A stretch of 57,693 nucleotides of DNA from Acidobacteriota bacterium (GCA_023265015.1 JAHFUO010000012.1:1-57693), one strand, 5' to 3'. Positions 3,813 through 52,871 are shown, counted from the first letter of the stretch. Translations and numbers: made by a program. Notes: generated from the letters alone by a model not told the origin.

Positions 3813-3898
3813 AACCACGAAGGCCACGAAAGACTCGAAGAACACGAAGACCTTACAAGGATTTCGTGACCTTCGCGATTTTCGTGAGCTTCGTGGTT
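3813..3898. repeat. oligomer-array hairpin, family C (9-nt period, CACGAAG units; termini AACCACGAA...TTCGTGGTT)
   Basis: Left arm aaccacgaaggccacgaaagactcgaagaacacgaagacc. Right arm atttcgtgaccttcgcgattttcgtgagcttcgtggtt is its imperfect reverse complement. Confidence 0.8.
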
Positions 3899-3984
3899 AG
3901 TCTTTTTTGCAGGTAACGAGACACCCGCGGGACGTCCATCTACCCCACTGTCTATGTAGTAGTATTACTTGTAAGGGTATTACC

Positions 3985-4221
3985 ATGCGCATCACATCGA
4001 AGGGTCAAGTGACAGTCCCGGTCGAGGTTCGACGAAAACTGGGGCTGCTTCCCAATACCGAGGTCGAGTTCGAAGTACGCGGCGCCGCTGCACGGCTCGT
4101 AAAGGTGCCGGCCCGGCGGGGCCGTAGTCGGGGCGGCGATGTCGTCGAGCGCCTGCACGGCAAGGCCGATGTCCGTATGACGACGGATGAGATTCTTGCG
4201 CTGACGCGAAAACGGGGATGA
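3985..4221 (+). CDS. vapB: AbrB/SpoVT-family antitoxin (VapB-like)
   Basis: MRITSKGQVTVPVEVRRKLGL swapped-hairpin N-terminus. ATGA stop/start overlap with the downstream PIN gene. Start trimmed to ATG 3985. Confidence 0.85.
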   Translation: MRITSKGQVTVPVEVRRKLGLLPNTEVEFEVRGAAARLVKVPARRGRSRGGDVVERLHGKADVRMTTDEILALTRKRG

Positions 4222-4622
4222 AGACGATTCTGGTCGACAGCAACGTCATTCTGGATGTGGCGACCAGCGACCCTACCTGGTTTTCGTGGTCGTCGCGCGC
4301 GCTGGCGGCCGCGGCCGATGACGCGGCGCTCGCGATCAACGCGCTGATCTACGCCGAGGTCTCTGTGGCATTTCGAAGAATCGAGGATCTCGAACAGAGC
4401 GTCCCGGCCTCGTTGTTCCAGCGTGAACCGCTCCCGTTCGAGGCCGCCTTCCTGGCGGGAAAGGCATTTCTCCGGTACCGGCGACATGGCGGGACGCGGA
4501 CATCGCCGCTGCCCGATTTCTACATTGGCGCGCACGCCGCGATTGTGGGGTGTCGCCTGCTGACGCGCGATCCAGTCCGCTATCGCACGTACTTCCCCAC
4601 GGTAGATCTCATCGCTCCTTGA
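4218..4622 (+). CDS. vapC: PIN-domain ribonuclease toxin (VapC-like)
   Basis: ILVDSNVILD N-terminal acidic motif, later LLTRD. 4-nt overlap with vapB. Confidence 0.9.
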   Translation: MKTILVDSNVILDVATSDPTWFSWSSRALAAAADDAALAINALIYAEVSVAFRRIEDLEQSVPASLFQREPLPFEAAFLAGKAFLRYRRHGGTRTSPLPDFYIGAHAAIVGCRLLTRDPVRYRTYFPTVDLIAP

Positions 4623-4720
4623 CGTTCAGCACAGGGGCGGCCGCCCGGCTGCGGCAACGGCCCCCATCACCGTCGTCCTGAACTGGGACGCGGCGCTCCC
4701 GAAGTGAAAGGTTATAAGCC

Positions 4721-4907
4721 GGTTCTCAGGTTGCTTTGGTGCTTGGGTGCTCGGGTTCCGGTGCTCGGGTTCACGGGAACGCTCGTTCACTGGAAGGTTC
4801 TCACGTTCTGCCAGCAAGAAGTGAACCGATGAACGACCCGAGCACCTTGAACCCGAGTACCAGCGAACTGGAACCCAAGCACCCGAGCACCAGAGCAACC
4901 CTAGAAC
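4721..4907. repeat. oligomer-array hairpin, family A (about 187 bp; GGTGCTCGGGTTC-type units; termini GGTTCTCAGG...CCCTAGAAC)
   Basis: Left arm ggttctcaggttgctttggtgcttgggtgctcgggttccggtgctcgggttcacgg. Right arm ...gaacccgagtaccagcgaactggaacccaagcacccgagcaccagagcaaccctagaac is complementary. Fills the convergent spacer between vapC and the methyltransferase. Confidence 0.8.
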
Positions 4908-4911
4908 TGGC

Positions 4912-5595
4912 CTAGTCCTTTATACAAGTCACCAGCGACCAGAGCCTCGGGAAGTTGACCTTCTTGATCGAGATCGGCTGAAGGCCTGCCTGCGCGAGGA
5001 AGCCGGGAAGGTCGAGATCCGACTTGAAGCCGAGGTGGACGGTGAACGGCGAAATCGCGCGCTCGAAGCGCGAGAAGATCGGGCTCGCGCTGCGGAAATG
5101 ATTCAGGACGATGATCTTTCCGCCGGGCCGGCAGACGCGGCGCATCTCCTTCACGACCTGCACGGGATCGGGCACCACGCTGATCAGGTACGGCGCGTAG
5201 ACGATGTCGAACGAGTCGTCCGCGAACATCATGTGCGACGCATCCATCTCGAGCAGGCGGATATTGCGCAGCCCCTTCTGCTCCACGCGATCGCGGCCCT
5301 TGTCGAGCATGGAGGCCGAAAAATCGATGCCGGTGACGTGACAGTTGCGCGGGTAGAGCGCGGCGTTGATGCCGGTTCCGAAGCCGGTCTCGAGGATCCG
5401 ATCCCCCGGAGCGATGCCCATGTGTTCGATGGCGACGAGCCGGCCGTGGTGCAGCGTCGGGCCGAACCACAGGTCGTACCAGCACGCCTGCTTTGCGTAC
5501 ACCCGCGCCATGAAATCGGTTTCGACAGCGGTCACCGACAGTGCGCGCGTCGCAGCGTCTGATCCGAAATCGTCGTCTTCGCGGTCGAACAGCAT
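4912..5595 (-). CDS. class I SAM-dependent methyltransferase (phospholipid N-methyltransferase/UbiE-like)
   Basis: SAM-binding ILETGFGTG motif. Typical 227-aa size. Confidence 0.8.
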   Translation of the reverse strand: MLFDREDDDFGSDAATRALSVTAVETDFMARVYAKQACWYDLWFGPTLHHGRLVAIEHMGIAPGDRILETGFGTGINAALYPRNCHVTGIDFSASMLDKGRDRVEQKGLRNIRLLEMDASHMMFADDSFDIVYAPYLISVVPDPVQVVKEMRRVCRPGGKIIVLNHFRSASPIFSRFERAISPFTVHLGFKSDLDLPGFLAQAGLQPISIKKVNFPRLWSLVTCIKD

Positions 5596-5723
5596 TCTGG
5601 TTGGCCTCCGGGAGGGCGGCTGTCCGAGCCTTCGTGTGAGGCGTGAAGTCCACCGACAGCGAAGCGGACCGCGCGACTATAGCGTTGTCAGGTGTGGATG
5701 GACAAGCCCCGATTTGCCTAGAT

Positions 5724-5807
5724 CAGTTGTCAGTTGCCCGTAGTCAGCTCTCAGTCGTGTTCCGCTTGGGATCGAACTGAGAACTGGCCACTGGGAACTG
5801 AAAACTG
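5724..5807. repeat. oligomer-array hairpin (7-nt period, CAGTTGT / reverse-complement AACTG units)
   Basis: Left cagttgtcagttgcccgtagtcagctctcagtcg. Right cgaactgagaactggccactgggaactgaaaactg (imperfect reverse complement). Confidence 0.75.
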
Positions 5808-5823
5808 CGTTAGCCGGGGCAAA

Positions 5824-7656
5824 TCAGGGGCGGAGCCCGTCCAGGACCGACAGGGCCGCTTCAATTCGCCCCCCGGACGCGGCCACGTGCACACCCTGCG
5901 CCATGCCTCGGACCGCGAGCGCCGTTTCCCGTGCAATCGCGATCCCCTGCGCCGCCGCCGCGGCCCCGTCCTGCGCACCGCGCATCCGCTCGATCACCTT
6001 ATCGGGCACGAGCACGTCCGGCACTTCGTTTGCCATGTACTCCGCCTCGAGCACGCTCTCGAACGGCCACAGCCCGGCGAGGATCGGGATGCGCGCTGAT
6101 TCGATCCGCTTGTAGAGGCGCTCGAACGTCGAGGGATCGAAGACCGGCCGCGTGATCGCGTACTCGGCGCCCGCCTCGACCTTGTACTCGAAGCGGCGCA
6201 CCTCGGCGTCGAGATCCTCGGCGCCCGGGTTCACCATCACGCCGACGTGAAACGCGGTCGGCATGCCGATCGCCTGGCCGCCGATGTCGAGACCACGATT
6301 GAGACGCGAGATGACGTTGGTGAGACCCACGGAGTCGACGTCGAAGACGACGGTGGCGTCGGGATAGTCGCCGACGGTGCGCGCGTCGCCGGTGACGATC
6401 GCGAGGTTCCGCACCCCCATCGCGTGCGCCCCCAGCAGGTCCGACTGCATGCCGAGCAGGTTGCGGTCGCGGCAGGAATACTGCAACACCGTCTCGATGC
6501 CCGCCTTCTGCTGCACGAGCACCGCGAGCGACAGCGCGCTCATGCGGGGGCCGCGCGGACCATCGGGGATGTTGACCACGTCGACGCCGCGGATCTTCAG
6601 CGTGCGCGCCTGCTCCACGATCTCGTCGCTCACATGCCCCTTGGGCGGCATAAGCTCGACGACCGTGGCGAACCGCCCTGCCGCAAGCGCCGCCGCAAAC
6701 TGCGACTTCTCGGCGCGCGGCACGAGCGCTGGCGGCGGGTCCAGAAGGACCGCGCCCGGCGGGTCCGAAGGCCGGGTCCTTTCGGACCCGGCCTGCTTGA
6801 TCGCCGCCTTGATCTGCCGGATGTGCTCGGGCGTCGTGCCGCAGCAACCGCCGACGAGGCGGACACCCTGCTGCACGAAGCGCCGCGCGTACGACGCCAT
6901 GTATTCCGGCGACGAGAGGTAGATGTTGCGCCCCTCGATGTCGCGCGGGCGGCCGGCGTTCGGCTGCGCGGACAGACGCGCCCGCGTCACCGAGGCCATC
7001 CGCTCGACGGTCTCGAGCATGTGCGCCGGCCCGATGCTGCAGTTCACGCCGATGACGTCGGCGCCGCGCTTCTCGAGCTCCGGCGCAAACTGCTCCGGGG
7101 GGGTCCCGTCCAGGCTGTTGCCGTCGTCTTCGATGGTCATCTGCGCGACGATCGGCAGCGGGCAGAGGCTGCGAACGGCCGCGATCGCGGCGCCCACCTC
7201 GTTCAGGTCCCGGAAGGTCTCGATCACGAACAGGTCGACGCCCCCTTCGAGCAGCGCCTCCGCCTGCTCGCGGAAGTACGACTCGGCCTCGTCGGTGCCC
7301 ATCTTGCCCCAGGGCTCGATGCGCACGCCGAGAGGACCGATCGCCCCGGCGACGTACGCCTGATCGCGCGCGGCCCGGCGCGCGATGCGGGCCCCCTCGA
7401 CGTTGATGTCGCGCACGCGATCCCCGAGGCCAAAGGCGCGCAGCTTGACGCGGTTCGCGCCGAACGTGTTCGTCTCGAGGACGTCGGCGCCTGCCCGCAC
7501 GTAATCCTGGTGGATTTCCGTGACGGTATCGGCCGACATGACGTTCAACGAGTCGAAACAGCGGTTGATGAACACGCCCTTGGCGTACAGCATCGTGCCC
7601 ATGGCGCCGTCGCAGACGAGCACGCGTTGATCAAGGGCTTCCAGGAACGGTTTCAT
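5824..7656 (-). CDS. bifunctional homocysteine S-methyltransferase / 5,10-methylenetetrahydrofolate reductase (YitJ-like)
   Basis: N-terminal HMT domain (VLETNTFGAN..., GGCCGTTPEHI) fused to a C-terminal MTHFR domain (VVNIPDGPRG..., RDRN...). The long ORF 5824..8400 is trimmed to ATG 7656 (MKPFLEALD). Confidence 0.9.
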   Translation of the reverse strand: MKPFLEALDQRVLVCDGAMGTMLYAKGVFINRCFDSLNVMSADTVTEIHQDYVRAGADVLETNTFGANRVKLRAFGLGDRVRDINVEGARIARRAARDQAYVAGAIGPLGVRIEPWGKMGTDEAESYFREQAEALLEGGVDLFVIETFRDLNEVGAAIAAVRSLCPLPIVAQMTIEDDGNSLDGTPPEQFAPELEKRGADVIGVNCSIGPAHMLETVERMASVTRARLSAQPNAGRPRDIEGRNIYLSSPEYMASYARRFVQQGVRLVGGCCGTTPEHIRQIKAAIKQAGSERTRPSDPPGAVLLDPPPALVPRAEKSQFAAALAAGRFATVVELMPPKGHVSDEIVEQARTLKIRGVDVVNIPDGPRGPRMSALSLAVLVQQKAGIETVLQYSCRDRNLLGMQSDLLGAHAMGVRNLAIVTGDARTVGDYPDATVVFDVDSVGLTNVISRLNRGLDIGGQAIGMPTAFHVGVMVNPGAEDLDAEVRRFEYKVEAGAEYAITRPVFDPSTFERLYKRIESARIPILAGLWPFESVLEAEYMANEVPDVLVPDKVIERMRGAQDGAAAAAQGIAIARETALAVRGMAQGVHVAASGGRIEAALSVLDGLRP

Positions 7657-7673
7657 GGGGTCGGAGGCCCCAT

Positions 7674-8084
7674 TTACTTCACGAGCAGATCGGCCTTGTC
7701 CCAGATAAAGTCGTCCTTGCTGTAGACGGCGAGCTCGTAGTCCTTGCCCATGAAGATCGCCGACACCGGGCACGCTTCCTCGCAGTAGCCGCAGAAGATG
7801 CAGCGCATCTTGTGGATCTGGTACACCGAGGCGTAGCGCGGGCCCGCCATCACCGTTCCGTCGTTCTCCGCCGCCTCGAGATAGATCGCATCCGCCGGGC
7901 ACGCCACCGAGCAGAGACCACAGGCGACGCACTTCTCCAGACCGTTCTCGTCGCGCAGGAGCACCTGCTTGCCACGGTACTTCGGGAACATCGGCACCTT
8001 CTCGTACGGGTAGTTCACCGTCACCTTCGGCTTGAACATGTGGCGGAACGTCGTGACGAGCCCGGTAATCAGCGGTCGGATCAT
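7674..8084 (-). CDS. nuoI: NADH-quinone oxidoreductase subunit I-like 2x[4Fe-4S] protein
   Basis: GLVTTFRHMFKPKVTVNYPYEK NuoI-type N-terminus. Two CxxCxxCxxxCP motifs (CVACGLCSVACP, CIFCGYCEEACP). Start set at MIRPLITG. Confidence 0.85.
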   Translation of the reverse strand: MIRPLITGLVTTFRHMFKPKVTVNYPYEKVPMFPKYRGKQVLLRDENGLEKCVACGLCSVACPADAIYLEAAENDGTVMAGPRYASVYQIHKMRCIFCGYCEEACPVSAIFMGKDYELAVYSKDDFIWDKADLLVK

Positions 8085-8102
8085 CCTTCGATGATAACTG
8101 AG

Positions 8103-8136
8103 CAATTCCCAATTCCCAACCCCCCAACTCCCAAGG
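8103..8136. repeat. one-armed heptamer array (CAATTCC-type), C-rich on + strand
   Basis: caattcc caattcc caacccc ccaactc ccaagg. Confidence 0.7.
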
Positions 8137-8167
8137 AACCTCGCACGAGTTTGTCGGCCCGGTTAGA

Positions 8168-9529
8168 ATGGCCGGCATAGTGCTCCAGGAAGCCAAATTT
8201 CTCTCTGCGGAGCAGTTCCTGCTCACGACGCTCATCGTCAAGCTCGCCGTCATGGCGGTGCTCGCGACGATGCTCGCGCGGTACCGGCGGTTCCGGCACA
8301 TCCTGATCTTCGAGCAGCGCGGGTGGAACGATCGGCTCGTCTTCACCGCCGCGTTCGGCATCCCGCTGATGGCCGGCGTCACGGCGCGGCTCCTCCTCAA
8401 CTACTACGCCGCGGATCTCTCGCTCGAGGGCGCATTCCTGGCCGGGCTGATCGCGGGCCCGTACGCCGGCGCGCTGGTCGGCGTGCTCGCCGGCACGCCC
8501 GCGCTCATCGCGGGCCAGTTCATCGCGCTGCCGTTTGCCGTCGGATGCGGCTTTGCCGGGGGCGGCCTGCGCGAGGCCTGTCCCAAGGAAACGATCTGGC
8601 AGCTCTCGCCGTTCGTCTTCATGGACCTGCACAAGCACCTGTGGTACATGATCCGGAAGGTCGGCGTGAGCTGGCAGCTGGTGCTGGTCCTCGCCGCCGT
8701 CGCGCTGGAGCTGCTGCGCGAGTCGCTCGGCGTCCGGTTCGGCACGCAGGCGATCTTCTACCTCGGGTCGCTGATCGGCAACACGAACATCCTCGTCAAC
8801 TCGCCGTGGATGATGGCGCTCATCGTGCTGTCAACCGTGCTGGCGGTCGCGACGCCCATCAGGATCTGGAACACCGCGCGCATCGAGCATCGCCTGCAGG
8901 AACAGGAAAAGCTGCTGCTCGCGGCGAAGATTGAAGCGCTCAAGAGCCAGATCAACCCGCACTTCCTGTTCAACACCCTGACGTCGATCTCGTCGCTCAT
9001 TCGCTCGCAGCCGGAGACGGCGCGCACGCTGATCAACAAGCTGTCCGGCCTCCTCCGCCGCCTGCTCCGCAGCCACCAGCACTTCGTCAGTCTGCGCGAG
9101 GAGCTCGAGTCGATCGACGAATACCTCGACATCGAAGTCGTGCGGTTCGGGCCAAAGCTGCGCGTCCGGAAAGAAATCAGCGCCGATACGATCGACGTCG
9201 TCGTGCCGAGCATGATCCTGCAGCCGCTGGTCGAGAACTCCATCAAGCATGGCTTCGCCCGCAAGGTCGGCGTCGGCAACATCGTCATCCGGAGCTGGCG
9301 CGAAAACGGCCGCGTGATGATCGAGGTCCAGGACGACGGGATGGGGTTCATGATGGAGCGCCTGGATCAGCCGATGGCCAGCGGCATCGGCCTGGCCAAC
9401 GTCCGCGAGCGCCTGCGGGTCATCTACGGCGCGGCGTACCAGCTCACGCTCGTGAGCGAGCCGGGCAGGGGGACGAGCGCCCGCGTCGAGATTCCCGAGC
9501 TGATGGCCGCGGAACAGATCACGGCATGA
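8168..9529 (+). CDS. LytS/YehU-type sensor histidine kinase
   Basis: Multi-TM N-terminus, His_kinase motif INPHFLFNTL, HATPase (QDDGMGF, GIGLANVRERL). Confidence 0.85.
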   Translation: MAGIVLQEAKFLSAEQFLLTTLIVKLAVMAVLATMLARYRRFRHILIFEQRGWNDRLVFTAAFGIPLMAGVTARLLLNYYAADLSLEGAFLAGLIAGPYAGALVGVLAGTPALIAGQFIALPFAVGCGFAGGGLREACPKETIWQLSPFVFMDLHKHLWYMIRKVGVSWQLVLVLAAVALELLRESLGVRFGTQAIFYLGSLIGNTNILVNSPWMMALIVLSTVLAVATPIRIWNTARIEHRLQEQEKLLLAAKIEALKSQINPHFLFNTLTSISSLIRSQPETARTLINKLSGLLRRLLRSHQHFVSLREELESIDEYLDIEVVRFGPKLRVRKEISADTIDVVVPSMILQPLVENSIKHGFARKVGVGNIVIRSWRENGRVMIEVQDDGMGFMMERLDQPMASGIGLANVRERLRVIYGAAYQLTLVSEPGRGTSARVEIPELMAAEQITA

Positions 9530-9530
9530 G

Positions 9531-9626
9531 ATTGACGGATTTACGAATCTACGAATTGACGAATTTGGATTCTTCGATTTCAATTCCAATTCGAATCCGT
9601 AAATTCGTAAATTCGTAAATTCGTCC
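9531..9626. repeat. oligomer-array hairpin, family B (8-nt period, TTACGAAT/ACGAATTG units)
   Basis: Left gacggatttacgaatctacgaattgacgaatttggattc. Right gaatccgtaaattcgtaaattcgtaaattcgtc. Occupies the whole 97-nt kinase/regulator spacer. Confidence 0.85.
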
Positions 9627-10415
9627 ATGCCAGGGTTACGCGTATTGGTCGTCGATGATGAGCAGCTCGCGCGCGAGGAGCTGTGTTATCAGCTCGAACA
9701 GCTGGGCAACGCCGAGGTCGTGGCGCAGGCCGGCAACGGGCTCGAAGCGATTGCCGCCGTCGAGCGGCACGAGCCGGACCTCGTGTTTCTCGATATCCAG
9801 ATGCCGGGGCTCACGGGCTTCGAGGTGGCGCGGCGCCTCCTCGAGCGCGACGAGGAGTCGCCCGCGCTGATCTTCGTCACGGCGTTCGATCAGCACGCGA
9901 TCGAAGCGTTCGAGGTGAACGCCGTCGATTACCTGCTGAAGCCGGTCGATGCGTCACGGCTCGAACAGGCGCTGCAACGGGCTCGAAAACGGCTCAGCTC
10001 GGAGCGGCCTCCCGGCAGCGCCCCGCTGAACGATCAGCTCGAGCGCATCGTCAAAATGATGGCCGGCCGGCAGGTCCGCCGCGAGCAGGTGGCGGTCAAG
10101 GTTGGCGAGCGGTTCCTGCTGGTCCAGGCCGACGACATCATCTATGCCTCGCTGGCCGACGAGTCGATTAACATAGTGACAGGCCAGGTAGCCGGAACCT
10201 CCAATCATCGGACGTTGGACGATCTGCAGGCGCGGCTCGACCCGGACGTGTTCTGGCGGGTCCACCGGTCGCACCTGGTCAACATCAACAAGATCAAGGA
10301 GATAGTCCCCTGGTTCAGCCGGAATTACATCCTGAGGATGAAAGACGCGAAGAGCACGGAGATCCCGGTCAGCCGCTCGCAGACGAAACGGCTCCGGGAG
10401 TACCTGAAGCTGTAG
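9627..10415 (+). CDS. LytTR/AlgR-family response regulator
   Basis: Receiver domain (VLVVDDE, LVFLDIQMPGL) and a LytTR DNA-binding C-terminus (RVHRSHLVNINKI). Confidence 0.9.
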   Translation: MPGLRVLVVDDEQLAREELCYQLEQLGNAEVVAQAGNGLEAIAAVERHEPDLVFLDIQMPGLTGFEVARRLLERDEESPALIFVTAFDQHAIEAFEVNAVDYLLKPVDASRLEQALQRARKRLSSERPPGSAPLNDQLERIVKMMAGRQVRREQVAVKVGERFLLVQADDIIYASLADESINIVTGQVAGTSNHRTLDDLQARLDPDVFWRVHRSHLVNINKIKEIVPWFSRNYILRMKDAKSTEIPVSRSQTKRLREYLKL

Positions 10416-10459
10416 ATCCGCCGCCGACCTCAGATGAGGCGTCCGCGTTCACGCTGAAC

Positions 10460-11104
10460 GTGCCGATCGAAGAGGCACTCGCGTCAATGGAGACCACTGT
10501 GCCCTCGCTGGAGGCTGCCACCCCCCGCCAAGCGCCCGACCTGCGCCTCGCGCTGGACGATCGCAGCGCGGCGATGATGCAGCAGATCAGCGTCTGGCGC
10601 GACGAGCTCGTCGCGTGGTTCAAGACGCTGTTCTCGGCTGCCGTCTATGCCACGCTGATCGTGACATTTGGGTTCCAGGTCGCGCGCGTCGAAGGCCTGA
10701 GCATGGCGCCCACGCTCGAAGATCAGGACCGCCTGATCGTCAACAAGTTCGTCTACCGCGTCAGCGCTCCGCGCCGCGGCGACATCGTGATGCTCTATTA
10801 CCCGCTCAACCCGGACAAATCGTTCGTGAAGCGGGTGATCGCGGAAGAAGGCGATACGGTTCGCATCGTCGATGGCCGCGTCTTCGTGAACGATGTGCCG
10901 ATGCGCGACGACTTCGTGGCGCCCGAGTTCCGCAGCCACGACGATTTCGGCCCCTCCGTCGTCCCCGAAGGCTATTACTTCGTGATGGGAGATCATCGGA
11001 ACAACAGCTCGGACAGCCGCCACTGGGGTTTCGTGCCGAAGAAGTACATCATCGGCAAGGTGCAGTTGCGCTGGTGGCCGATTCCGACCGCTCACGTGTT
11101 CTAA
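10460..11104 (+). CDS. lepB: signal peptidase I
   Basis: S26 motifs GLSMAPTL and GDHRNNSSDSRHWGFVP. Start uncertain: GTG 10460, ATG 10487 or ATG 10574. Confidence 0.85.
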   Translation: MPIEEALASMETTVPSLEAATPRQAPDLRLALDDRSAAMMQQISVWRDELVAWFKTLFSAAVYATLIVTFGFQVARVEGLSMAPTLEDQDRLIVNKFVYRVSAPRRGDIVMLYYPLNPDKSFVKRVIAEEGDTVRIVDGRVFVNDVPMRDDFVAPEFRSHDDFGPSVVPEGYYFVMGDHRNNSSDSRHWGFVPKKYIIGKVQLRWWPIPTAHVF

Positions 11105-11979
11105 CCGATCGGCATGCGTCGGTCGTCCGCGTTCTCCGCCGCGTTCTCATCCTGAACCTCGCCGTCTCGGCCGCGAAAATCGCGCTCGGCGCCTACACGG
11201 GCGCGATCTCGATCCTCTCCGACGGATTTCATTCGCTCAGCGACGCCGCCTCGAACGTCGTCGCGCTCGTCGGCGTCTCGGCCGCGCAGCGTCCGCCCGA
11301 CCGGGACCATCCGTACGGCCATCGCAAGTACGAGACGATGGCGTCGCTCGCCATCCTGGTCTTCATGATCATCGTGCTGGTTCAGATCTCGGAGACCGCG
11401 GTGGAGCGGCTGCGGCACGCCAGCACGCCGACGGTGCTGCCCGCCAGCGTCCTGGTGATGCTCGCGACGCTCGCCATGAACGTACTGGTCGTGCGCTACG
11501 AGTCGAGAGAAGGCCGGCGCCTGAACAGCCAGATCCTGGGCGCCGACGCGAAGCACACCCGAAGCGACGTGTGGACGGCGAGCGCGGTGCTCGCGGCGCT
11601 CGTCGGCGCGTGGCTCGGGTACCCGCGGCTGGATCCATTCGCCGGCCTGGTGGTGGCGGGCTTCGTCGGTCACGCCTGCTGGCAGATTGCGAGGGACGCC
11701 TCAGGCGTCCTGGCCGACCACATCGTCATCGCGGAAGAAGGCATCCGATCGGTGGTGGAGCCGACGCCCGGGGTGATCGGGTGCGAGAAGATTCGCACGC
11801 GCGGGCCGGCGGACAGCGTGTTCGTCGACCTGCACCTCTGGATCGATGGGCGGACGCCGCTTGGTGAAGCGCATGCGATCTCACATGTCGTGAAGGACCG
11901 GCTGATGGCGCGGTTCCCCCAGGTGGTCGACGTGGTCATCCATATCGAGCCTCCTCACGAAAACCCCAAACCCCAATAG
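11074..11979 (+). CDS. cation diffusion facilitator (CDF) metal efflux transporter
   Basis: SDGFHSLSDAASN and HPYGHRKYE motifs, C-terminal cytoplasmic domain. Only in-frame start near the TM1 region is GTG 11074, which overlaps the lepB end, so the start is uncertain. The last codons (HENPKPQ) lie in a heptamer array. Confidence 0.8.
   Translation: MADSDRSRVLTDRHASVVRVLRRVLILNLAVSAAKIALGAYTGAISILSDGFHSLSDAASNVVALVGVSAAQRPPDRDHPYGHRKYETMASLAILVFMIIVLVQISETAVERLRHASTPTVLPASVLVMLATLAMNVLVVRYESREGRRLNSQILGADAKHTRSDVWTASAVLAALVGAWLGYPRLDPFAGLVVAGFVGHACWQIARDASGVLADHIVIAEEGIRSVVEPTPGVIGCEKIRTRGPADSVFVDLHLWIDGRTPLGEAHAISHVVKDRLMARFPQVVDVVIHIEPPHENPKPQ
11956..11979. repeat. short heptamer array ending CAATAG (left flank of the A/T-richer island)
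   Basis: cacgaaaaccccaaaccccaatag. Compare with 14258-14304. Confidence 0.65.
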
Positions 11980-11997
11980 TTTTTAAGCCATTAGGTC

Positions 11998-12885
11998 ATG
12001 AAAAAATGTGTCTCGGTGGCTGTCCTCGACCTCGACAACACCCTTTTCGATTGGTTCAGCATCTGGTTCGCCTCCTTTGGCGCGATGCTCGACGTTCTAG
12101 TCGACCAGAGCGGCATAGATCGCCAGCAACTGACGTCCGACTTTCACTTGGTTCACCAACACCACCAAACGTCTGAATATGCCTTCTCAATTTCAGAGCT
12201 GCCATCGCTGCGATCTAAGCATCCTGACGCGGACCCGCGGGACCTATACCAGGACGCAATCGATGCCTTCCGTGCCGCCGAGTCGGCCAATATGCGGCTA
12301 AACCCCGGCGTAGCTGAGACTCTGAGATGTTTGAAGCGGGCGGGCGTGCTGTTGGTCGCCTACACAGAATCGTTGGAGTTCTACGCGTGCTACCGCCTTA
12401 TCAAGCTGGGTCTCGACGAGCAGATCGATTACTTGTATTCCCCTCCTGACCACGCGCTACCAGCCAACATGACACCGGATCAGATCCGACACTACCCTCC
12501 CTCGCACTACGTGCTGCGACACACCCAACGACGAAACACGCCGCGGGGTGAGCTAAAGCCGAACCCGCACCTTCTGAAACAGATCATCGAGGAAGTCGGG
12601 GGCACCATCGAATCAACGTTCTACGTGGGCGACAGCAAGATGAAGGACATCGCGATGGCGAACGCCGCCGGCGTGACCAGTGTTTGGGCGAAATACGGCG
12701 CATCACCGCCCACGCAGCAATACACGCTGTTGCAGCAGGTCACTCACTGGTCTCCCGAGGACGTAGCAAGGGAGGAGGCCATCAAGAACGGCACCGCAGG
12801 GAAAGACTTGATTCCGAGCGTCACCCTCAGAAATACGTTCGACGAACTCCTGGCTCACTTCGAGTTTTCGAGGCACTCCGCATGA
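11998..12885 (+). CDS. HAD-superfamily hydrolase
   Basis: Motif I VLDLDNTLFDW and motif IV-like YVGDSKMKDI. Visibly lower G+C than the flanks. Confidence 0.75.
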   Translation: MKKCVSVAVLDLDNTLFDWFSIWFASFGAMLDVLVDQSGIDRQQLTSDFHLVHQHHQTSEYAFSISELPSLRSKHPDADPRDLYQDAIDAFRAAESANMRLNPGVAETLRCLKRAGVLLVAYTESLEFYACYRLIKLGLDEQIDYLYSPPDHALPANMTPDQIRHYPPSHYVLRHTQRRNTPRGELKPNPHLLKQIIEEVGGTIESTFYVGDSKMKDIAMANAAGVTSVWAKYGASPPTQQYTLLQQVTHWSPEDVAREEAIKNGTAGKDLIPSVTLRNTFDELLAHFEFSRHSA

Positions 12886-12993
12886 GCGACTTTACGTTTG
12901 CGGGGCTCACGGTCGAAGAAAGTCGCCGCGGTCAGCCAAGTCCGGCCGCTGCTTCGCTCATGTGCGGTTTACAATCGAATCGGAGAAAAACAG

Positions 12994-13923
12994 GTGAAAC
13001 ACGCTGAGGACGCGCAGAACAGCCCCATCGTCTGGAAGAGCGATGATGGCAAGTCTCAGTTGCACAACGTCGACTGTCTCGAGTTCATGGAGCGCCTGCC
13101 GGCCGACAGCATCGACTGCATCTGGACGGACCCGCCGTATCTGCTTTCGAACGATGGAATCACCTGCGTGGCGGGGCGCATGGTCAAGGTCAACAAGGGT
13201 GAGTGGGACCGCAGCCGTGGCGTTGACCTGGACCATGAGTTCAACCGGACATGGCTGGCGGCCTGTCATCGCGTTCTGAAGCCCGCTGGCGCGATTTGGG
13301 TAAGTGGCACCTTACACGTCTACCTGAGCGTCGGCATGGCGATGCAGCAGCTAGGATTCCGCATTTTGAACGACATCGTTTGGGAGAAACCTGCCCCCCC
13401 TCCAAACCTCGGCTGCCGCTGCTTCACCCACTCGACCGAGATCTTGCTCTGGGCGACGAAGGCGAAGAAGGGGAGCAAGGATAGGCACACATTCAACTAC
13501 GAGGCAATGAAGGAGGAGAACGCCGGCAAGCAGATGAAGAGCGTGTGGCGCTTCTCGACGCCGAGCGACGAAGAAAAGCGACTCGGGAAGCACCCAACTC
13601 AGAAACCGATTGCTCTCATTGCTCGGTGCCTTCGTGCAACGACAGATCCTGGGGACTTGGTTTTCGACCCGTTCTCAGGGTCCGGTTCGACCGGTGTGGC
13701 TGCAATGAAGTTGGGGCGTCATTTCGTGGGGTGCGAACAGGACCAGACCTGCGCGGCCCTTGCTGCCCGCCGGCTGAACGAGGCGGCCCCCGGTGAGATC
13801 GCAGATACCAACGCCACTTCGGCTTCCGGTCTGCGGGGCCGGCAGCAAGCTCTGTCGCGAAAGCCTAGGTCGCGTGGATCGCGCCGAGGCCCTCATTCGG
13901 CTCAAGACGCTCATCGGCTTTGA
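12994..13923 (+). CDS. beta-class N4-cytosine/N6-adenine DNA methyltransferase
   Basis: Motif IV TDPPY precedes motif I FDPFSGSGSTG (N6_N4_Mtase, PF01555-type order). GTG 12994 with GGAG 8 nt upstream. The 3' tail overlaps the next ORF. Confidence 0.85.
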   Translation: MKHAEDAQNSPIVWKSDDGKSQLHNVDCLEFMERLPADSIDCIWTDPPYLLSNDGITCVAGRMVKVNKGEWDRSRGVDLDHEFNRTWLAACHRVLKPAGAIWVSGTLHVYLSVGMAMQQLGFRILNDIVWEKPAPPPNLGCRCFTHSTEILLWATKAKKGSKDRHTFNYEAMKEENAGKQMKSVWRFSTPSDEEKRLGKHPTQKPIALIARCLRATTDPGDLVFDPFSGSGSTGVAAMKLGRHFVGCEQDQTCAALAARRLNEAAPGEIADTNATSASGLRGRQQALSRKPRSRGSRRGPHSAQDAHRL

Positions 13924-14236: not shown

Positions 14237-14263
14237 TAGAGGCGGCGACCTCACCGCCACGCG

Positions 14264-14304
14264 AAAATCCCAAATCCCAAAGCCCAAATCCCAAACCTCA
14301 ATAG
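14264..14304. repeat. one-armed heptamer array (AAATCCC units) ending CAATAG (right flank of the island)
   Basis: aaaatcc caaatcc caaagcc caaatcc caaacct caatag. Contains the stop codon of the convergent dehydrogenase gene. Confidence 0.75.
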
Positions 14305-16523: not shown

Positions 16524-18502
<1,979 letters not shown>

Positions 18503-23456: not shown

Positions 23457-23520
23457 CCCCGTCTCCCTGCCCCTGCCCCCGTCTCCTGCCCCCGTCTCAT
23501 GCCCCTGCCCCCTGCCCCCT
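23457..23520. repeat. one-armed C-tract array (CCCCTGC/CCCCGTCT units), C-rich on + strand
   Basis: tccccgtctccctgcccctgcccccgtctcctgcccccgtctcatgcccctgccccctgccccct. Confidence 0.7.
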
Positions 23521-24410: not shown

Positions 24411-24415
24411 GAGAC

Positions 24416-39903: not shown

Positions 39904-42810
39904 ATGCCCGAGTCCATAAAGCCGTCCCGTGGTCCGCTCATCGTTCGCGGCGCGCGCACGCACAACCTGAAGAACGTCGACGTCACGCTGCCGAATGGCA
40001 AGCTCGTCATCTTTACCGGCGTGAGCGGGTCGGGCAAGTCGTCGCTTGCCTTCGACACGATTTACGCCGAAGGCCAGCGCCGCTACGTCGAATCGCTCTC
40101 CGCCTATGCCCGGCAGTTCCTCGAGCGGATGGAGAAGCCGGACGTCGACAAGATCGAGGGCATCTGCCCGGCGATCGCGATCCGCCAGAAGAACAGCGTT
40201 CGCAACCCGCGCTCGACGGTCGGCACGACCACTGAGATCCACGACTACATGCGCCTGCTCTACGCGCGCGTCGGCCGGACGTTCTGCCGGCAGTGCGGGC
40301 AGGAGGTGATTCGCGAGACGGCTGAGATCGTGGCGAGGCGGCTGGCCGACCTGCCGGTCGACACGCGCGTGCTGATCGGATTTCAGATCCCCGTTGTCGC
40401 GATGTCGGCTGCCCCGGCGAAGGACGCGGGCGGCGACCCAGACGCGTCCGACGAGCTGTTCGAAACGGAGCAGGACGGGGATCCGATTGCCGAGACGCTC
40501 GACGGTCTGCAGCGCCGCGGCTACGCCCGCCTGTTGATCGACGGGCGCGCGGTGACGTTCGACGAGATCGATCGTGCCGCACTCGATGACAGGACCACGC
40601 TCGACGTTGTCCTCGATCGCGTGAAGATTGAAGGCGACCTGCGCAGCCGCCTGACGGATTCGATCGAGACGTCGTATCGCGAGGGCGGAGGAGCGGCCTT
40701 TGCGATCGTGCTCCCGAATCCCGAATCCCGAATCCCGAATCCCCACAGGATCGAGTTCTCAGAGCGTTTCGAGTGCAGAAGCTGCGGGATCGCCTACGAG
40801 ACCCCGCAACCGCGGCTCTTCTCCTTCAACAACCCATTCGGCGCCTGCCCGACGTGTCACGGCTTCGGCAACATCATCGAGCTCGACATGGACCTGGTGA
40901 TCCCGGACCAGTCGAAATCGATCATCGAGGGCGCGATCGAGCCGTGGAGCAAGCCGCACTATCGATCGCAGCTGGCCGAATTGAAGCGCGCCGCGCGCAA
41001 GTCGGCCGTCCGCCTCGACGTGCCGTGGTCGGAGCTGACCGACGACGAGCGGAGGTTCGTGATCGAGGGCAACGATGCCTACGACGGCATCCGCGGATTT
41101 TTCCGCTGGCTCGAGCGCAAGAAATACAAGGTGCACGTCCGCGTGTTCCTGAGCCGCTATCGCAGCTATCTTGCCTGTCCCGATTGCGGCGGCGCGCGCC
41201 TTCGCCGCGAGGCGCGTGACGTCCGCGTGGGCGATCGGACGATTGACGCCGTCTCGGCGCTCACCGTCCGCGAGGCGCAGGCGTTCTTCTCGGAGCTCAA
41301 GCTGTCGGAAAAGGAGTCGACGGTTGCTGACAAGGTCCTGCGCGAGATTCGCCGCCGGCTTTCTTTCCTGAGCGACGTCGGCCTCGACTACCTGACGCTC
41401 GATCGCCTGTCGTCGACGCTGTCGGGCGGCGAGTCGCAGCGCATCAACCTGGCGACCTCGCTCGGCTCCGCGCTCGTCGGCACGCTGTATGTGCTGGACG
41501 AGCCGTCGATCGGCCTGCACTCGCGCGACAACAGGCGGCTCATCGACATCCTTCAACAGCTTCGTGACCAGGGGAACACCGTGCTGGTCGTCGAGCACGA
41601 CGAGGACATGATTCGCGTCGGCGATCACATCGTCGACATCGGCCTCGGCGCCGGCGAGCAGGGCGGCAAGGTCGTCTACTCGGGCGACTACGCGGGATTG
41701 CTCCAGGAGCCGCGGTCGCTCACGGCGAAGTACCTGCGCAACGAGCTCGCGATCCCCGTGCCGTCGCCGCGGCGCAAGGGGCTCGCGCAGAAGATCCGGC
41801 TCACGGGCGCCAGCGAGCACAATCTCAAGGACATCGACATCGAGGTTCCGCTGAACGCGCTGACGTGCGTCACGGGTGTGAGCGGATCGGGGAAGTCGAC
41901 GCTGGTGCACGACGTGCTCTACGCCGCGATCAAGCGGGCCAAGGGCGACTGGGATCGCCGCGTCGGCGCCTTCCGCGAGCTGCATGGGCTCGAGTACATC
42001 ACGGACGTCGTGCTGGTCGATCAGACGCCGATTGGCCGCACCCCGCGATCAAACCCGGTGACCTACCTCAAGGCGTTCGATCCGATCCGCGAGCTGTTTG
42101 CGTCCACGAAGGACGCCCGCGCGCGCGGCCTGACCGCCAGCCACTTCTCCTTCAACGTGCCCGGCGGGCGCTGCGAGGCGTGCCAGGGCGAAGGCGTGGT
42201 GCGCGTGGAGATGCAGTTCCTGGCCGACGTGTTCGTGCCGTGCGAGCAGTGCGACGGCATGCGCTTCAAGTCGCAGGTCCTCGAGGTGCGTTACAAGGGC
42301 AAGAGCGTGCACCAGGTGCTCGAGATGACGGTGCGCGAGGCGTTGACCTTCTTCGGCACGTCTCCGAAGGTACTGCGGCGGCTGCAGGTGCTCGACGAAA
42401 TCGGCCTCGGCTACCTCCGCCTCGGTCAGCCGGCGACGACGCTGTCAGGAGGGGAGGCGCAGCGAATCAAGATCGCGGCGCACCTGGCGTCGTATGGCGG
42501 CGAGCGATTGCTGTACATCCTCGACGAGCCGACCACGGGCCTTCACTTCGACGACATCGCGAAGCTTCTGGCCGCGTTCAAGAAGCTGGTCGAGGCCGGC
42601 CACACGCTGATCGTCATCGAGCACAACCTCGATGTGATCAAGACCGCCGACTACGTCATCGATCTCGGTCCCGAGGGGGGCGACGGGGGCGGCGAGGTGA
42701 TTGCCACGGGCACGCCAGAGCAGATCGTGCAGGTGGAGGCATCGTTTACCGGTCAGGCGCTGCGTCAGGTGCTCGCGGCCGGCAGAGCCAATGCCTACGC
42801 GACCCGATAG
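39904..42810 (+). CDS. uvrA: excinuclease ABC subunit A
   Basis: [18 protein letters not shown]..., [34 protein letters not shown], two ABC modules, zinc fingers. ORF 39121..42810 trimmed to ATG 39904. Confidence 0.97.
40713..40743 (+). repeat. (CCCGAAT)4CCC heptamer array inside the uvrA coding sequence
   Basis: ctC CCG AAT CCC GAA TCC CGA ATC CCG AAT CCC Cac, translated [10 protein letters not shown]. Identical to 24380-24410. Confidence 0.95.
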
Positions 42811-45606: not shown

Positions 45607-45707
45607 AATTTACGAATCCACGAATTGACGAATTGACGAATTGGAATTTTCCATTGCATGGATCAATCCACATCCGTCAATTCGTAAGTTCGTCAATTCG
45701 TCAATTC
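45607..45707. repeat. oligomer-array hairpin, family B
   Basis: Left aatttacgaatccacgaattgacgaattgacgaattgg. Right ccgtcaattcgtaagttcgtcaattcgtcaattc. Spans from the leuD stop to (and including) the LysR stop. Confidence 0.85.
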
Positions 45708-47941: not shown

Positions 47942-48021
47942 CGGTTGGTGGATGGTGGTTTGCGGTTGGTGGACCACGAACCAGCATCCACTAACCACCA
48001 ACCACCAACCACTAACCACCC
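47942..48021. repeat. oligomer-array hairpin (7-nt period, GGTTGGT / ACCAACC units)
   Basis: Left cggttggtggatggtggtttgcggttggtgg. Right cactaaccaccaaccaccaaccactaaccaccc. Includes the mscS stop and its last two Gly codons. Confidence 0.8.
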
Positions 48022-51319: not shown

Positions 51320-51320
51320 T

Positions 51321-51407
51321 AACCGCGAAGACCACGAAAACCGCGAAGGTCACGAAACAAACCTTTAGAATATTTCGTGTGCTTCGAGATCTTCGTGATT
51401 TCGTGGT
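51321..51407. repeat. oligomer-array hairpin, family C
   Basis: Left aaccgcgaagaccacgaaaaccgcgaaggtcacgaaac. Right atttcgtgtgcttcgagatcttcgtgatttcgtggt. Confidence 0.8.
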
Positions 51408-51417
51408 GTAGATACGT

Positions 51418-52065
51418 ATGGACGTAGTCCGGCACCAACCCAATCAGGGCTGGATTGAAGTCATCGTCGGCAGCATGTTCAGCGGCAAGAGCGAAGAGCT
51501 GATTCGCCGCCTGCGCCGCGCGCAGATCGCGCGCCAGAAGGTCCAGATCTTCAAGCCGACGGTCGACACCCGGTACGCCGACGACGATATCGTCTCCCAC
51601 AGCGACATGCGGATCTCCTCTCGCGCGGTCAGCACCTCGCGCTCGCTGCTGGACCTGGTCGAGACGGACACCGAGGTCGTCGGGATCGATGAGGGGCAAT
51701 TCTTCGACCAGGAGCTGCCGGCCGTGTGCAACGAGCTTGCGGATCGCGGCACACGCGTCATCGTGGCGGGCCTCGACCAGGATTATCTCGGCAAGCCGTT
51801 CGAGCCGATGCCGCAGCTGCTCGCGATCGCCGAGTACATCACCAAGACCCTCGCGATCTGCATGGTGTGCGGCAACCCCGCCAATCACACGCAGCGCCTC
51901 GTGTCGAGCGGCGACCGCGTGCTCCTCGGCGCGCAGGGCACCTACGAGGCGCGCTGTCGTGCCTGTTTTGATCCGAGCCTTGCGGGTGTACCGGCAAAGC
52001 CCAAATCCCACGCCCCAACAGAGGCCCGATCCCCGATCCCCAATCCCCGATCCCCGAAGGTGTAG
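51418..52065 (+). CDS. tdk: thymidine kinase
   Basis: [13 protein letters not shown]-loop, IDEGQFF, C-terminal CMVCG...CRAC zinc motif. The last 13 or so codons run through a heptamer array. Confidence 0.9.
52025..52059. repeat. one-armed heptamer array (CCCGATC units), C-rich on + strand
   Basis: cccgatc cccgatc cccaatc cccgatc cccgaag, preceded by aaagcccaaatccc. Confidence 0.8.
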
Positions 52066-52069
52066 TCCC

Positions 52070-52633
52070 ATGGGGTTGCAGGTTCTCCTTCAGCAGATCC
52101 TCTTTTTCTTCGGCATCGGCTTTTTCATTGCCAACGTTCTGGTCATCGCCGACCTCCTGCGCTTCCGGCTCCGCAGGCGATCGGCGCTGCTCGTGTGGCA
52201 GGGTGAGAAGCCGCGGTTCTACGGCTTCAGCCTCGCGCTCGGCGTGATGCTCGGGCTGCTGTTTGCCTTCAAGCTGTTCGTCCAGCACCGGCCACTCAAC
52301 CAGCTGTTCGGCGAGACCATGATGTTCTTCTATTACGCGTATGCGTTCCCGTTGAGCACGCGGATCGCGCGGGGATTCTACGACGACGGGATCTGGTCCG
52401 ACAGCGGGTTCATGAAGTGGGCGCAGATCTCGGCGGTGTCGTGGAAGGAGGAGGGGGCGGTGACGCTTGTTCTCATCTCGCATTTCCGCAACATCGCGCG
52501 ACGGATGACGGTGCCAGGCAACCTGTACGGCCAGGCACGGCGGCTTCTCAGGGACAAAATCAAGGCGCATGACATTCATATCGGGGGCACCGGGCTCGAT
52601 CTCGGGAGTCGGGACGAGGCGGATGCTGTTTGA
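52070..52633 (+). CDS. hypothetical membrane protein
   Basis: ATG 52070 within ORF 51689..52633. Three or four hydrophobic helices (ILFFFGIGFFIANVLVIADLL, FYGFSLALGVMLGLLFAF). Confidence 0.55.
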   Translation: MGLQVLLQQILFFFGIGFFIANVLVIADLLRFRLRRRSALLVWQGEKPRFYGFSLALGVMLGLLFAFKLFVQHRPLNQLFGETMMFFYYAYAFPLSTRIARGFYDDGIWSDSGFMKWAQISAVSWKEEGAVTLVLISHFRNIARRMTVPGNLYGQARRLLRDKIKAHDIHIGGTGLDLGSRDEADAV

Positions 52634-52634
52634 G

Positions 52635-52871
52635 GGTTCTCGGGTGCACGGGTGCACAGGTGCACGGGTTCGGTTCACGGGTTCACGGGTGCACGGGTTC
52701 ACGGGTTCGGTTCACGGGTTCACGTTGACGGGACCCTGGTTGAAGGGTGCTCGGGGCGGTTCAAGTTCTTCATTTGCATCGACTTCACGAACCCGAACCC
52801 CACCCGTGAACCTCGAACCCGAACCCTCGAACCGAACCCGTGCACCCGTGCACCCATGCACCCTGAGAACC
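52635..52871. repeat. oligomer-array hairpin, family A, largest copy (about 237 bp; termini GGTTCTCGGG...CCCTGAGAACC)
   Basis: Left arm is tandem GGGTGCAC/GGGTTCAC/GGGTTCGG octamers. Right arm is the reverse complement (gaacccgaac..., gtgcacccgtgcaccc). Ends 16 nt before the ku start. Confidence 0.85.

Follow-up and report, generated by a model that had tools for sequence, protein, structure and literature searches.

Tandem-array palindromes at gene 3′ ends in a Vicinamibacterales genome: probable dispersed repeats of several families

A 57,693-nucleotide (nt) contig from an Acidobacteriota bacterium (GCA_023265015.1, JAHFUO010000012.1:1-57693) raises the question of what kind of DNA has come to occupy the spacers between its genes. 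Throughout, "the window" denotes this whole stretch, and positions are counted from its first letter. Eleven elements located between positions 3813 and 52871 have arms composed of short tandem oligomers, and in ten of them the second arm is the reverse complement of the first, so that the entire element can fold into a long imperfect hairpin. The feature is real and statistically solid, and sequence comparisons give good support to the conclusion that families A, B, and C of these elements are true dispersed repeats with mobility between loci. We consider it reasonably probable that the elements as a whole are dispersed noncoding palindromic repeats of several families in a Vicinamibacterales genome, resembling repetitive extragenic palindromes (REPs) and bacterial interspersed mosaic elements (BIMEs) or MITEs (miniature inverted-repeat transposable elements).

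Anatomy of the hairpins and their place beside genes

The minimum free energy (MFE) of each element was calculated with RNAfold and compared with the values for 100 dinucleotide shuffles to yield a z-score. For the ten full hairpins, MFE values range from -32 to -156 kcal/mol and z-scores from -4.8 to -12.7, whereas A3half, which consists of a left arm alone and for which no right arm was found downstream, yields a z-score of -3.0. By family, the z-scores are -8.5 (MFE -43.4), -7.3, and -4.8 for C1, C2, and C3; -5.5 and -7.0 for B1 and B2; -10.5 and -12.7 for A1 and A2; and -6.0, -7.3, and -5.0 for the heptamer elements H1, H2, and H3. Every element thus folds below its shuffled controls, a check that had been proposed in the preliminary description of this DNA, and structures were recovered at all 11 locations named there.

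The tandem nature of the arms, each with a reverse-complementary partner, was likewise borne out. Tandem Repeats Finder (TRF) independently identified 7-, 8-, and 9-nt arrays in both arms, and a search for inverted repeats recovered the arms with 70-91% complementarity. A detector that pairs TRF arrays with arrays of reverse-complementary consensus units reported eight inverted tandem-repeat pairs in the window versus 0.00 (maximum 0) in 30 dinucleotide shuffles. When applied to 1.37 Mb representing the Lon loci of 80 unrelated genomes, the same detector reported 14 pairs, most of which are weak. The architecture also occurs with other units in metagenome-assembled genomes (MAGs) labeled Nitrospiria, Pyrinomonadaceae, and Anaerolineae.

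A typical arm comprises about four copies of a 7- to 9-nt unit, and each unit consists of an invariant core plus one to three free junction bases. In the predicted folds, unpaired positions recur once per unit, within its variable part. Element lengths range from 70 to 237 bp, and at least eight unrelated units are used in the clade (CACGAA, ACGAAT, TGCTCGGG, GGTTGGT, CAGTTGT, GGGATTC, CCAACTC, and CCGTCTA). Because the whole element is an inverted repeat, terminal inverted repeats are present, and the ends are conserved within each family: AACC(A/G)CGAA...TTCGTGGT(T) in family C and GGTTCTCNGG...CCNNGAGAACC in family A, with A(A/T)TTnACG as a further type of end. The shared termini that had been pointed out earlier hold for families C and A, whose ends also recur in relatives. 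A rule whereby the first arm is purine rich or G rich was considered and abandoned, as only some families obey it and CCAACTC hairpins in relatives L204, L207, and L211 place the C-rich arm first.

The hairpins, the single-arm element, and the short-period arrays of the window are as follows, with a strand given where one applies.

C1, 3813-3898: family C hairpin with four 9-nt units (NNN-CACGAA) per arm and ends AACC...GGTT; begins 5 nt past the stop of a 389-amino acid (aa) gene, 2638-3807(+); a T6 run lies 5 nt downstream.
C2, 18518-18600: family C hairpin; begins 15 nt past the OPT transporter stop (18502, +).
C3, 51321-51407: family C hairpin preceded by the EF-P stop (51319) and followed by the start of the thymidine kinase gene (51418).
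B1, 9531-9626: family B hairpin of 8-nt units (ACGAAT+NN); exactly fills the gap from the stop of a LytS-type histidine kinase gene (9529) to the start of a LytTR response regulator gene (9627).
B2, 45607-45707: family B hairpin filling the space from the LeuD stop (45606, +) to the LysR stop (45701-45703, -), which falls within the final unit of B2.
A1, 4721-4907: family A hairpin of G-rich 6- to 9-nt units (TGCTCGGG type) with ends GGTTCTCAGG...CCCTAGAAC; its end is 4 nt short of the methyltransferase stop (4912, -).
A2, 52635-52871: family A hairpin (GGGTGCAC/GGGTTCAC subtype) that contains higher-order 29/37-nt repeats; begins 1 nt past the stop of a 187-aa gene (52633), with its other end 16 nt short of the Ku start (52888).
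A3half, 29906-29978 (+): family A, left arm only; begins 3 nt past the stop of a LuxR-type regulator gene (29902).
H1, 5724-5807: heptamer (CAGTTGT) hairpin; downstream of the metH-like stop (5824, -) by 16 nt and followed by a promoter-like TTGTCC-18-TATAGT (5705-5676, -) of the methyltransferase gene.
H2, 47942-48021: heptamer (GGTTGGT/ACCAACC) hairpin in the stop-to-stop gap between the isopropylmalate synthase (IPMS) gene (47940, +) and the MscS gene (48012, -).
H3, 35226-35295: heptamer (CGGGATT/AATCCCG, i.e., GGGATTC) hairpin upstream of a major facilitator superfamily transporter gene (-).
24378-24412 (-): direct-only (TCGGGAT)x5, unit as in H3; 3 nt from the stop of gene 24416-25435(-).
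14265-14295 (-): direct-only (GGGATTT)x4.4; 2 nt from the stop of a 2-hydroxyacid dehydrogenase gene, 14298-15281(-).
31735-31763 (-): direct-only (GGTAGTT)x4.1; overlaps the stop of gene 31758-32795(-).
40712-40743 (+): in-frame heptamer array (TCCCGAA)x4.6 inside the open reading frame (ORF) of a uvrA paralogue, 39904-42810.
52025-52057 (+): heptamer array (GATCCCC)x4.7 that encodes the C-terminal tail of thymidine kinase.
8103-8134 (+): direct-only (CAACTCC)x4.4 in the divergent spacer between a ferredoxin gene (-) and a kinase gene (+); its unit family is that of the 3′ elements that follow EF-P and IPMS in relatives.
23459-23519 (-): array of 6/13-nt units, G rich on the sense strand, between a canonical terminator (23563-23538, -) and an acyltransferase start.

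Genes were mapped with a codon-usage model self-trained on the window, which agrees with the public gene calls for MAG GCA_023265075.1 and is backed by Pfam annotation of about 40 window ORFs. On this map, hairpins are present in 11 of the 34 spacers of at least 40 nt, and direct-only arrays of 6- to 13-nt units are present in six more. The earlier statement that most larger spacers carry hairpins was therefore too strong, as about one-third hold a hairpin and about one-half hold any short-period array. The spacer filling reported for B1 (stop to start) and for B2 and H2 (stop to stop) does hold, and both B2 and H2 overlap the stop codons of minus-strand genes. Ten of the 11 hairpins lie 0-16 nt from a stop codon, the exception being H3, and four of the six convergent spacers are occupied by a hairpin. 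Among the direct-only arrays, three of six (14265, 24378, and 31735) adjoin or overlap a stop, and heptamer arrays also reach into the 3′ ends of the genes that end at 11979 and 52065. The thymidine kinase tail encoded at 52025-52065 is itself an absorbed heptamer array, and this tail varies among relatives, where 3′ arrays of the gene are found at L204:15489-15548 (AAAACCC type) and L208:15745-15775. Near H1, the GACTATA motif of the promoter-like sequence is conserved in the orthologous spacers of six relatives (L001-L007).

Copies at unrelated loci and turnover in relatives

Evidence that the members of a family are copies of one another comes first from family A. The arms of A1, A3half, A2, and an element in a relative (L204:6735-6955) can be aligned in register, and their unit variants come in the same irregular order (GGTTCTCAGG, TTGCTYTGG, TGCTCGGG, TGCTCGGG, TTCCGG, and onward). 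A3half aligns in this manner with the left arm of A1 from a locus 25 kb away, and the L204 element lies between a purine glycosylase gene and leuC, where the window has a 45-nt spacer that lacks an element. Copies at different loci with the same irregular unit order are expected from copying but not from independent slippage. Similarly, B1 and B2 share ATTTACGAATC(T/C)ACGAATTGACGAATT, which amounts to about 27 nt that differ at a single position. For family C, a fourth copy (L081:164-246, z-score -9.2) is located 130 nt to the left of the window start, and further copies with ends AACC...GGTT and four units per arm are present in L207, L208, and several high-GC metagenome contigs (L137, L159, L170, and L102 also carry copies). 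The proposal that family members derive from one another is thus upheld by these alignments. Its corollary, that dispersal rather than local slippage produced them, holds in part: copies do exist at unrelated loci, but slippage has also acted locally, as demonstrated by an additional 8-nt unit in one strain (see below).

Orthologous sites differ among relatives as listed here.

Kinase/regulator spacer: B1 (96 nt) in the window; 0-4 nt in L002, L004, and L007.
LeuD/LysR spacer: B2 in the window; 0-3 nt or overlapping genes in L204-L211.
EF-P/thymidine kinase spacer: C3 (CACGAA 9-mers) in the window; CCAACTC-heptamer hairpins in L204 and L207; a CCAACTC direct array in L208.
After IPMS: H2 (GGTTGGT) in the window; a GGATGGT hairpin in L208; CCAACTC/AATTCCC arrays in L204, L211, and L212; a family A-like direct array in L138.
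Domain of unknown function (DUF)/Ku spacer: full A2 hairpin in the window; C-rich right arm only in L204 and L207.
Inside the uvrA paralogue: one arm (11 aa) in the window; L207 and L208 have the complete heptamer hairpin in frame (25 aa).

The uvrA-paralogue element (L207:2410-2481 and L208:3719-3789) sits between the UvrA_inter and DNA-binding domains. At the sites of two window arrays, relative L141 has a short ordinary GC hairpin (24378 site) and a CACGAAG array (23459 site). Half elements are represented by A3half, by the DUF/Ku spacers of L204 and L207, and by the EF-P/thymidine kinase spacer of L208. Strain L082, which is 94.7% identical, carries an additional 8-nt unit in the B1 right arm together with a single substitution elsewhere in the element, so that B1 shows one substitution in 96 nt versus about 5% divergence of the flanking genes (p = 0.054). 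From the spacers of 0-4 nt, the changes in unit number, and the gain or loss of arms in relatives, the elements have been inserted or copied and subsequently altered, in the manner of microsatellites, by unit slippage, arm gain or loss, and family replacement, with fast turnover.

Three further features of these relatives were noted. In an orthologous spacer of L002 (13500-13960), a GC-rich hairpin of about 91 bp is repeated in tandem five times, an arrangement that resembles a BIME cluster. The metH/methyltransferase spacer of L007, which corresponds to that of H1, carries a perfect nonperiodic hairpin of about 33 bp (17080-17165). The uvrA paralogue of L204 (3195-6105) is called as two overlapping ORFs at a point away from the array site, which may reflect a frameshift or an assembly error.

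Conserved cores, possible roles, and competing explanations

Nine copies of family C, drawn from at least five genomes, were aligned. Outside unit 3, every position of the 6-nt cores is conserved in at least eight of the nine copies on both arms, and the one to three junction bases are near random. Unit 3 is distinct in that its first two bases are degenerate in seven of eight arms of the four genome copies versus 1 of 24 other units (Fisher test, p = 1.8e-5). In each of the four genome copies, CT, TT, CG, or GG stands in place of CA on at least one arm, which places a mismatch at a fixed depth in the stem, and the same degeneracy is seen in copies from other genomes. Junction bases are shared by partner units across the arms at a frequency of 0.60, by neighboring units at 0.50, and by random pairs at 0.34. 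The covariation term for the alignment is -0.11, the stem hardly varies, and the few one-sided changes are G-U.

A pattern that requires only four phased CGAA/CACGAA cores matched at least 120 metagenome stretches with GC contents of 35%-70%. Among arrays away from contig ends, 79 are arranged as [CACGAA]n...[TTCGTG]n, two have the reverse order, and 53 are direct only. Many of these arrays carry the outer unit (T)CACCACGAAG or AACCACGAAG, even though the pattern makes no such demand. Crude ORF calls on the metagenome loci gave a noisy picture of how near CACGAA arrays lie to stop codons. In viral contigs, the same pattern yielded 77 direct arrays that are mostly perfect 9-mers and probably coding, and an inverted partner was present in four. 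Because the viral matches are nearly all direct, the hairpin form found in metagenomes is not an artifact of the query. Elements with TCACCACGAAG ends are present on the low-GC contigs L083, L099, L111, and L101, and where family C copies are low in GC, the left flank is T rich and the right flank A rich. No array of three or more ACGAA units occurs in 1.37 Mb from 80 taxonomically labeled genomes, and therefore the taxonomic breadth of family C is gauged only from contig GC content. One phage-like viral contig, L218 (IMGVR_UViG_3300033489_000663), has at least four dispersed direct arrays of TTAACGCGAATGnCACGAATnnGCGAATAACGCGAAT at 3783, 4702, 6186, and 9446, each just upstream of an apparent gene start, and these could constitute a repeated regulatory array.

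If the elements are dispersed palindromic repeats, their spread would have taken place as DNA, along a hairpin-dependent route that generates no target-site duplication, and they would persist at gene 3′ ends because insertions are tolerated there. Transcripts of either strand would then form long hairpins with periodic mismatches. Any use by the host would presumably be as weak bidirectional 3′-end structures that serve as an exonuclease barrier, a partial terminator, or an insulator in a genome that is poor in canonical terminators. The number of canonical terminators in the window equals the shuffle expectation, and a consensus scan flags only inner substems of C1 and C3. None of the hairpins except C1, with its T6 run, is followed by a U-tract, as intrinsic termination would call for. 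A textbook intrinsic terminator with an 11-bp GC stem and T6 run is nonetheless present at 23563-23538(-), after gene 23601-24206(-), and its conservation in L141 establishes that classical terminators exist in this genome, although they are rare (24300-24325 was also noted). We judge it most likely that the elements are tolerated selfish DNA with at most a weak host role as a 3′ hairpin; functions as 3′-end hairpins, as terminators, and as selfish DNA are each possible.

Several observations weigh against the elements being mobile repeats with an RNA-level role of this kind. No Y1_Tnp, RAYT (REP-associated tyrosine transposase), or other transposase was matched by Pfam among the approximately 40 window ORFs, so that a mobilizing enzyme is lacking there. 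Target-site duplications are absent around the 11 elements, around the metagenome copies, and in comparisons of filled and empty B1 and B2 sites, and no common insertion motif is visible across the elements. The empty B2 site in L204 is a junction, TGAGATTTACGAATTCG, that holds one B-like unit and the 8-nt palindrome CGAATTCG; hence B2 may have grown in place, or L204 may carry an excision scar. The hairpins fold equally well on both strands, and neither MFE values nor G-U counts reveal a consistent bias toward the sense strand. The family C alignment neither proves nor disproves selection on pairing, because a stem that hardly varies offers almost no compensatory change. Finally, the location of B1 inside a kinase-regulator operon and of a heptamer hairpin inside the uvrA paralogue of relatives makes strong termination unlikely.

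How much of this could be produced without mobility? Slippage of a 7- to 9-nt seed combined with intrastrand template switching could give rise to purely local products, which would be neutral filler. We regard this alternative as unlikely, but it is compatible with many of the data: the polymorphism in B1 unit number between strains, the 29/37-nt duplications within A2, the hairpin and single-arm states at one locus in relatives, the arrays of different units in orthologous spacers, the B-like unit and CGAATTCG palindrome at the empty B2 site, the excess sharing of spacers by neighboring units in an arm over random pairs, and the arrays that adjoin or overlap stop codons, as would be seen if growth were limited by coding constraint. 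However, local growth does not predict the same irregular unit order at two sites separated by 25 kb and again at a noncorresponding site of another genome, or the near identity of B1 and B2 when B1 occupies what is a 1-nt gap without a seed in relatives. Nor does it predict the agreement among family C copies in unit number, in termini, and in which unit is degenerate, and undirected mirroring should not yield a 79:2 bias in arrangement. A more speculative idea is that of a widespread and unrecognized class of mobile hairpin DNA whose ends are reiterated units with an invariant core and free junction bases. Such elements might spread, with no target-site duplication, by a mechanism outside the known transposases, such as a hairpin-specific enzyme that acts on single-stranded DNA or reiterative templated synthesis in which units are added with variable junctions. 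The conserved ends (T)CACC/AACC...GGTT/GGTG(A) of the CACGAAG family, its fixed inward arrangement, its occurrence on metagenome contigs of 35% to 70% GC, and the common degenerate third unit are compatible with this idea, but we consider so broad a claim doubtful.

The location of the elements could alternatively mean that they are selected as bidirectional factor-independent terminators or as stabilizers of mRNA 3′ ends, wherein repeats are simply an easy route to a long hairpin. Their closeness to stop codons, the occupied convergent spacers, the stability on both strands, and the scarcity of canonical terminators fit well with this explanation, as do the position of H1 between a stop codon and the next promoter, the other hairpins that relatives have at the same spacers (e.g., the 33-bp perfect hairpin of L007), the invariance of paired cores relative to internal-loop positions, and the low divergence of B1. 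It is nevertheless improbable, given that B1 splits a kinase gene from a regulator gene to which it is translationally coupled in relatives, that L207 and L208 carry a full hairpin inside the uvrA-paralogue ORF, and that direct-only arrays, which cannot fold, are found in equivalent places. Moreover, a U-tract follows only C1, G-U pairs are not biased toward the sense strand, and the T-rich left and A-rich right flanks of low-GC family C copies are the reverse of those expected for bidirectional terminators. If hairpin potential were instead a by-product, the arrays could be platforms for a protein such as a multisite transposase, a nucleoid protein, or a TRAP-type RNA-binding ring. Invariant CACGAA(G) cores with free 1- to 3-nt junctions on both arms of the nine copies, the near lack of compensatory substitutions, the fixed inward orientation, and the preference for about four units (also seen in PMC4692102) would suit such platforms. 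We find this very improbable, as at least eight unrelated units in one clade would each need their own binder, a spacing of 7-9 bp is short for double-stranded DNA-binding domains, and no candidate gene is linked. An explanation by G-quadruplexes or i-motifs, as put forward for heptamers of Xanthomonas and Nostoc, is one to which we give hardly any credence. H3 and the arrays at 24378, 40712, and 14265 do have GGG every 7 nt in about four or more units of the form (GGGANTN)n, and families A and H2 are G rich in one arm. In contrast, C, B, and H1 lack G-tracts and yet have the same architecture, position, and dynamics, and in the hairpin elements a duplex would compete with the quadruplex.

We therefore return to dispersed palindromic repeats of several families as the favored reading. 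In Xanthomonas, Nostoc, Beggiatoaceae, and Chloroflexus, short-period arrays at stop codons have been noted as curiosities and explained case by case, for example as G-quadruplexes. Here, a soil phylum that has received little study shows this architecture with several units unrelated to one another. Comparative evidence further indicates that whole elements have been copied from locus to locus, that they can settle in gaps of 0-4 nt, that a related heptamer hairpin lies in frame within a gene of two relatives, and that paired cores stay constant while junctions drift. Taken together, these observations argue for a general class, that of tandem-array palindromes, with its own mode of spread and possibly a 3′-end role where classical terminators are rare. 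The elements also explain assembly breaks and gene-call artifacts in MAGs of this kind, including thymidine kinase tails and uvrA inserts, and they offer strain-typing markers of the variable-number tandem repeat type.

Genomic setting and comparison with known repeat classes

The window has a GC content of about 65%, and its Lon protease is 66-72% identical to Lon proteins of Vicinamibacterales/Acidobacteriota MAGs. Positions 1-15339 match contig JAHFUN010000105.1 of MAG GCA_023265075.1 with 99.88% identity, and synteny with relatives is kept on both sides of the window. Its genes are ordinary housekeeping genes that encode Lon, a VapBC pair, a metH-like protein, LytS/LytTR, an OPT transporter, RF3, a uvrA paralogue, LeuCD, LysR, IPMS, MscS, HtrA, EF-P, thymidine kinase, and Ku. 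A single tRNA-Thr is the only Rfam match above the gathering threshold. Exact-protein look-ups for further strains found no record of the OPT transporter or EF-P, a short contig only for thymidine kinase, and nothing beyond the same MAG for the methyltransferase. The VapB/VapC pair (a MazE-like antitoxin and a PIN toxin) at 3985-4622, between the 389-aa gene and the methyltransferase gene, is present only in the lineage of the window, where it is bracketed by C1 and A1; relative L003 has about 50 nt at this place. A stretch of about 1.8 kb (29979-31757), bounded by A3half and the GGTAGTT array, contains no convincing gene and only a HicB/CopG-like antitoxin fragment (30865-31194).

REPs are single hairpins of 20-40 bp with a GTAG or CGTC head that are mobilized by RAYT Y1 transposases. 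Like REPs and BIMEs, the elements described here are dense, extragenic, imperfect palindromes at gene 3′ ends and in convergent spacers, with family-specific ends, no target-site duplication, proposed roles in mRNA stabilization and termination, and many copies (11 hairpins and six direct-only arrays in 57.7 kb, plus copies outside). Unlike REPs, they are 70-237 bp long, have internally repetitive arms, and end in AACC, GGTTCTC, or ATTTACG; no GTAG or CGTC head is present in the elements. The original suggestion of mobile REP/BIME/MITE-like DNA is consequently sustained with regard to dispersed copies, but the signature of a described REP or MITE family and a transposase in the window are both missing. 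Resemblance to MITEs such as Correia/NEMIS, Nezha, and Chunjie lies in the small size, dispersal, nonautonomy, terminal inverted repeats, and presence or absence among relatives. However, tandem units make up the whole of the palindromic element here, where a MITE has unique sequence enclosed by its inverted ends, target-site duplications are absent, and the window has no cognate insertion sequence.

Rickettsia palindromic elements can sit in frame within protein genes and are not built of tandem oligomers. The in-frame copy in the uvrA paralogue resembles them in this behavior, and most elements here are extragenic. Integron attC sites, which have RYYYAAC...GTTRRRY cores and belong to unidirectional cassette arrays beside an integrase, were rejected as an identity because the elements are flanked by housekeeping genes that are syntenic and lie on both strands, no integrase was found, and AAC...GTT ends are confined to family C. 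Resemblances to attC, CRISPR, parS, Chi, and the tRNA T-arm were dropped as partial or coincidental. Rfam searches returned the elements only as subthreshold look-alikes of miRNA precursors (24-36 bits versus cutoffs of 63-135), and a BLAST search of a plasmid collection with A1 gave no match. Short tandemly repeated repetitive (STRR) sequences of cyanobacteria and the heptamers of Beggiatoaceae are also abundant, intergenic, and characteristic of a lineage, but they are almost all direct repeats and not hairpins after stop codons. In Beggiatoaceae, 169 sets of TAACTGA heptamers are direct and one is inverted, and they are mostly located just upstream of start codons (PMC4679880).

Full-text literature yielded no closer description than that of the GGGAATC and GGGGA(T/C)T simple-sequence repeats of Xanthomonas and Nostoc (Rehm et al. 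2015, PLoS One, PMC4692102). Each Xanthomonas genome has 70-75 convergent inverted pairs of GGGAATC heptamer arrays with stem-loop potential, which either overlap the preceding ORF or lie beyond it, at a mean distance of about 28 nt, and are 89-93% intergenic. Four units are preferred, positions are 83% conserved between species while lengths vary, and the single-array or paired state is usually kept. These repeats have no link to insertion sequences and were read as G-quadruplex elements (PMC4692102). Accordingly, the architecture cannot be called undescribed, as was originally supposed, because convergent inverted heptamer pairs at stop codons were already known from Xanthomonas.

The likenesses to the elements of the window are considerable: H3 and the arrays at 24378 and 40712, with their GGGATTC unit, conform to (GGGANTN)n; all 10 full elements are formed by convergent arrays; 10 of the 11 elements lie within 16 nt of a stop or over it; and the elements are intergenic, prefer about four units, and differ in length between relatives. 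The differences are that A, B, C, H1, and H2 have other units or 8- to 9-nt periods; that runs of three G residues are absent from C, B, and H1 and present only in A, H3, and the GGGATT-type arrays; that several families coexist here in an Acidobacteriota host, with arms that are homologous between loci; and that insertion into 0- to 4-nt gaps and in frame into a gene is documented here. Because C, B, and H1 have no G-tracts, G-quadruplex formation is not a shared property, and what is common is the architecture of hairpin and array. The G-rich heptamer members and the GGGAATC inverted pairs of Xanthomonas belong to one kind of element. Stop-adjacent palindromes made of tandem arrays are thus a known kind, and what is new here are the 8- and 9-nt families that lack G-tracts and the homology of whole arms between loci.

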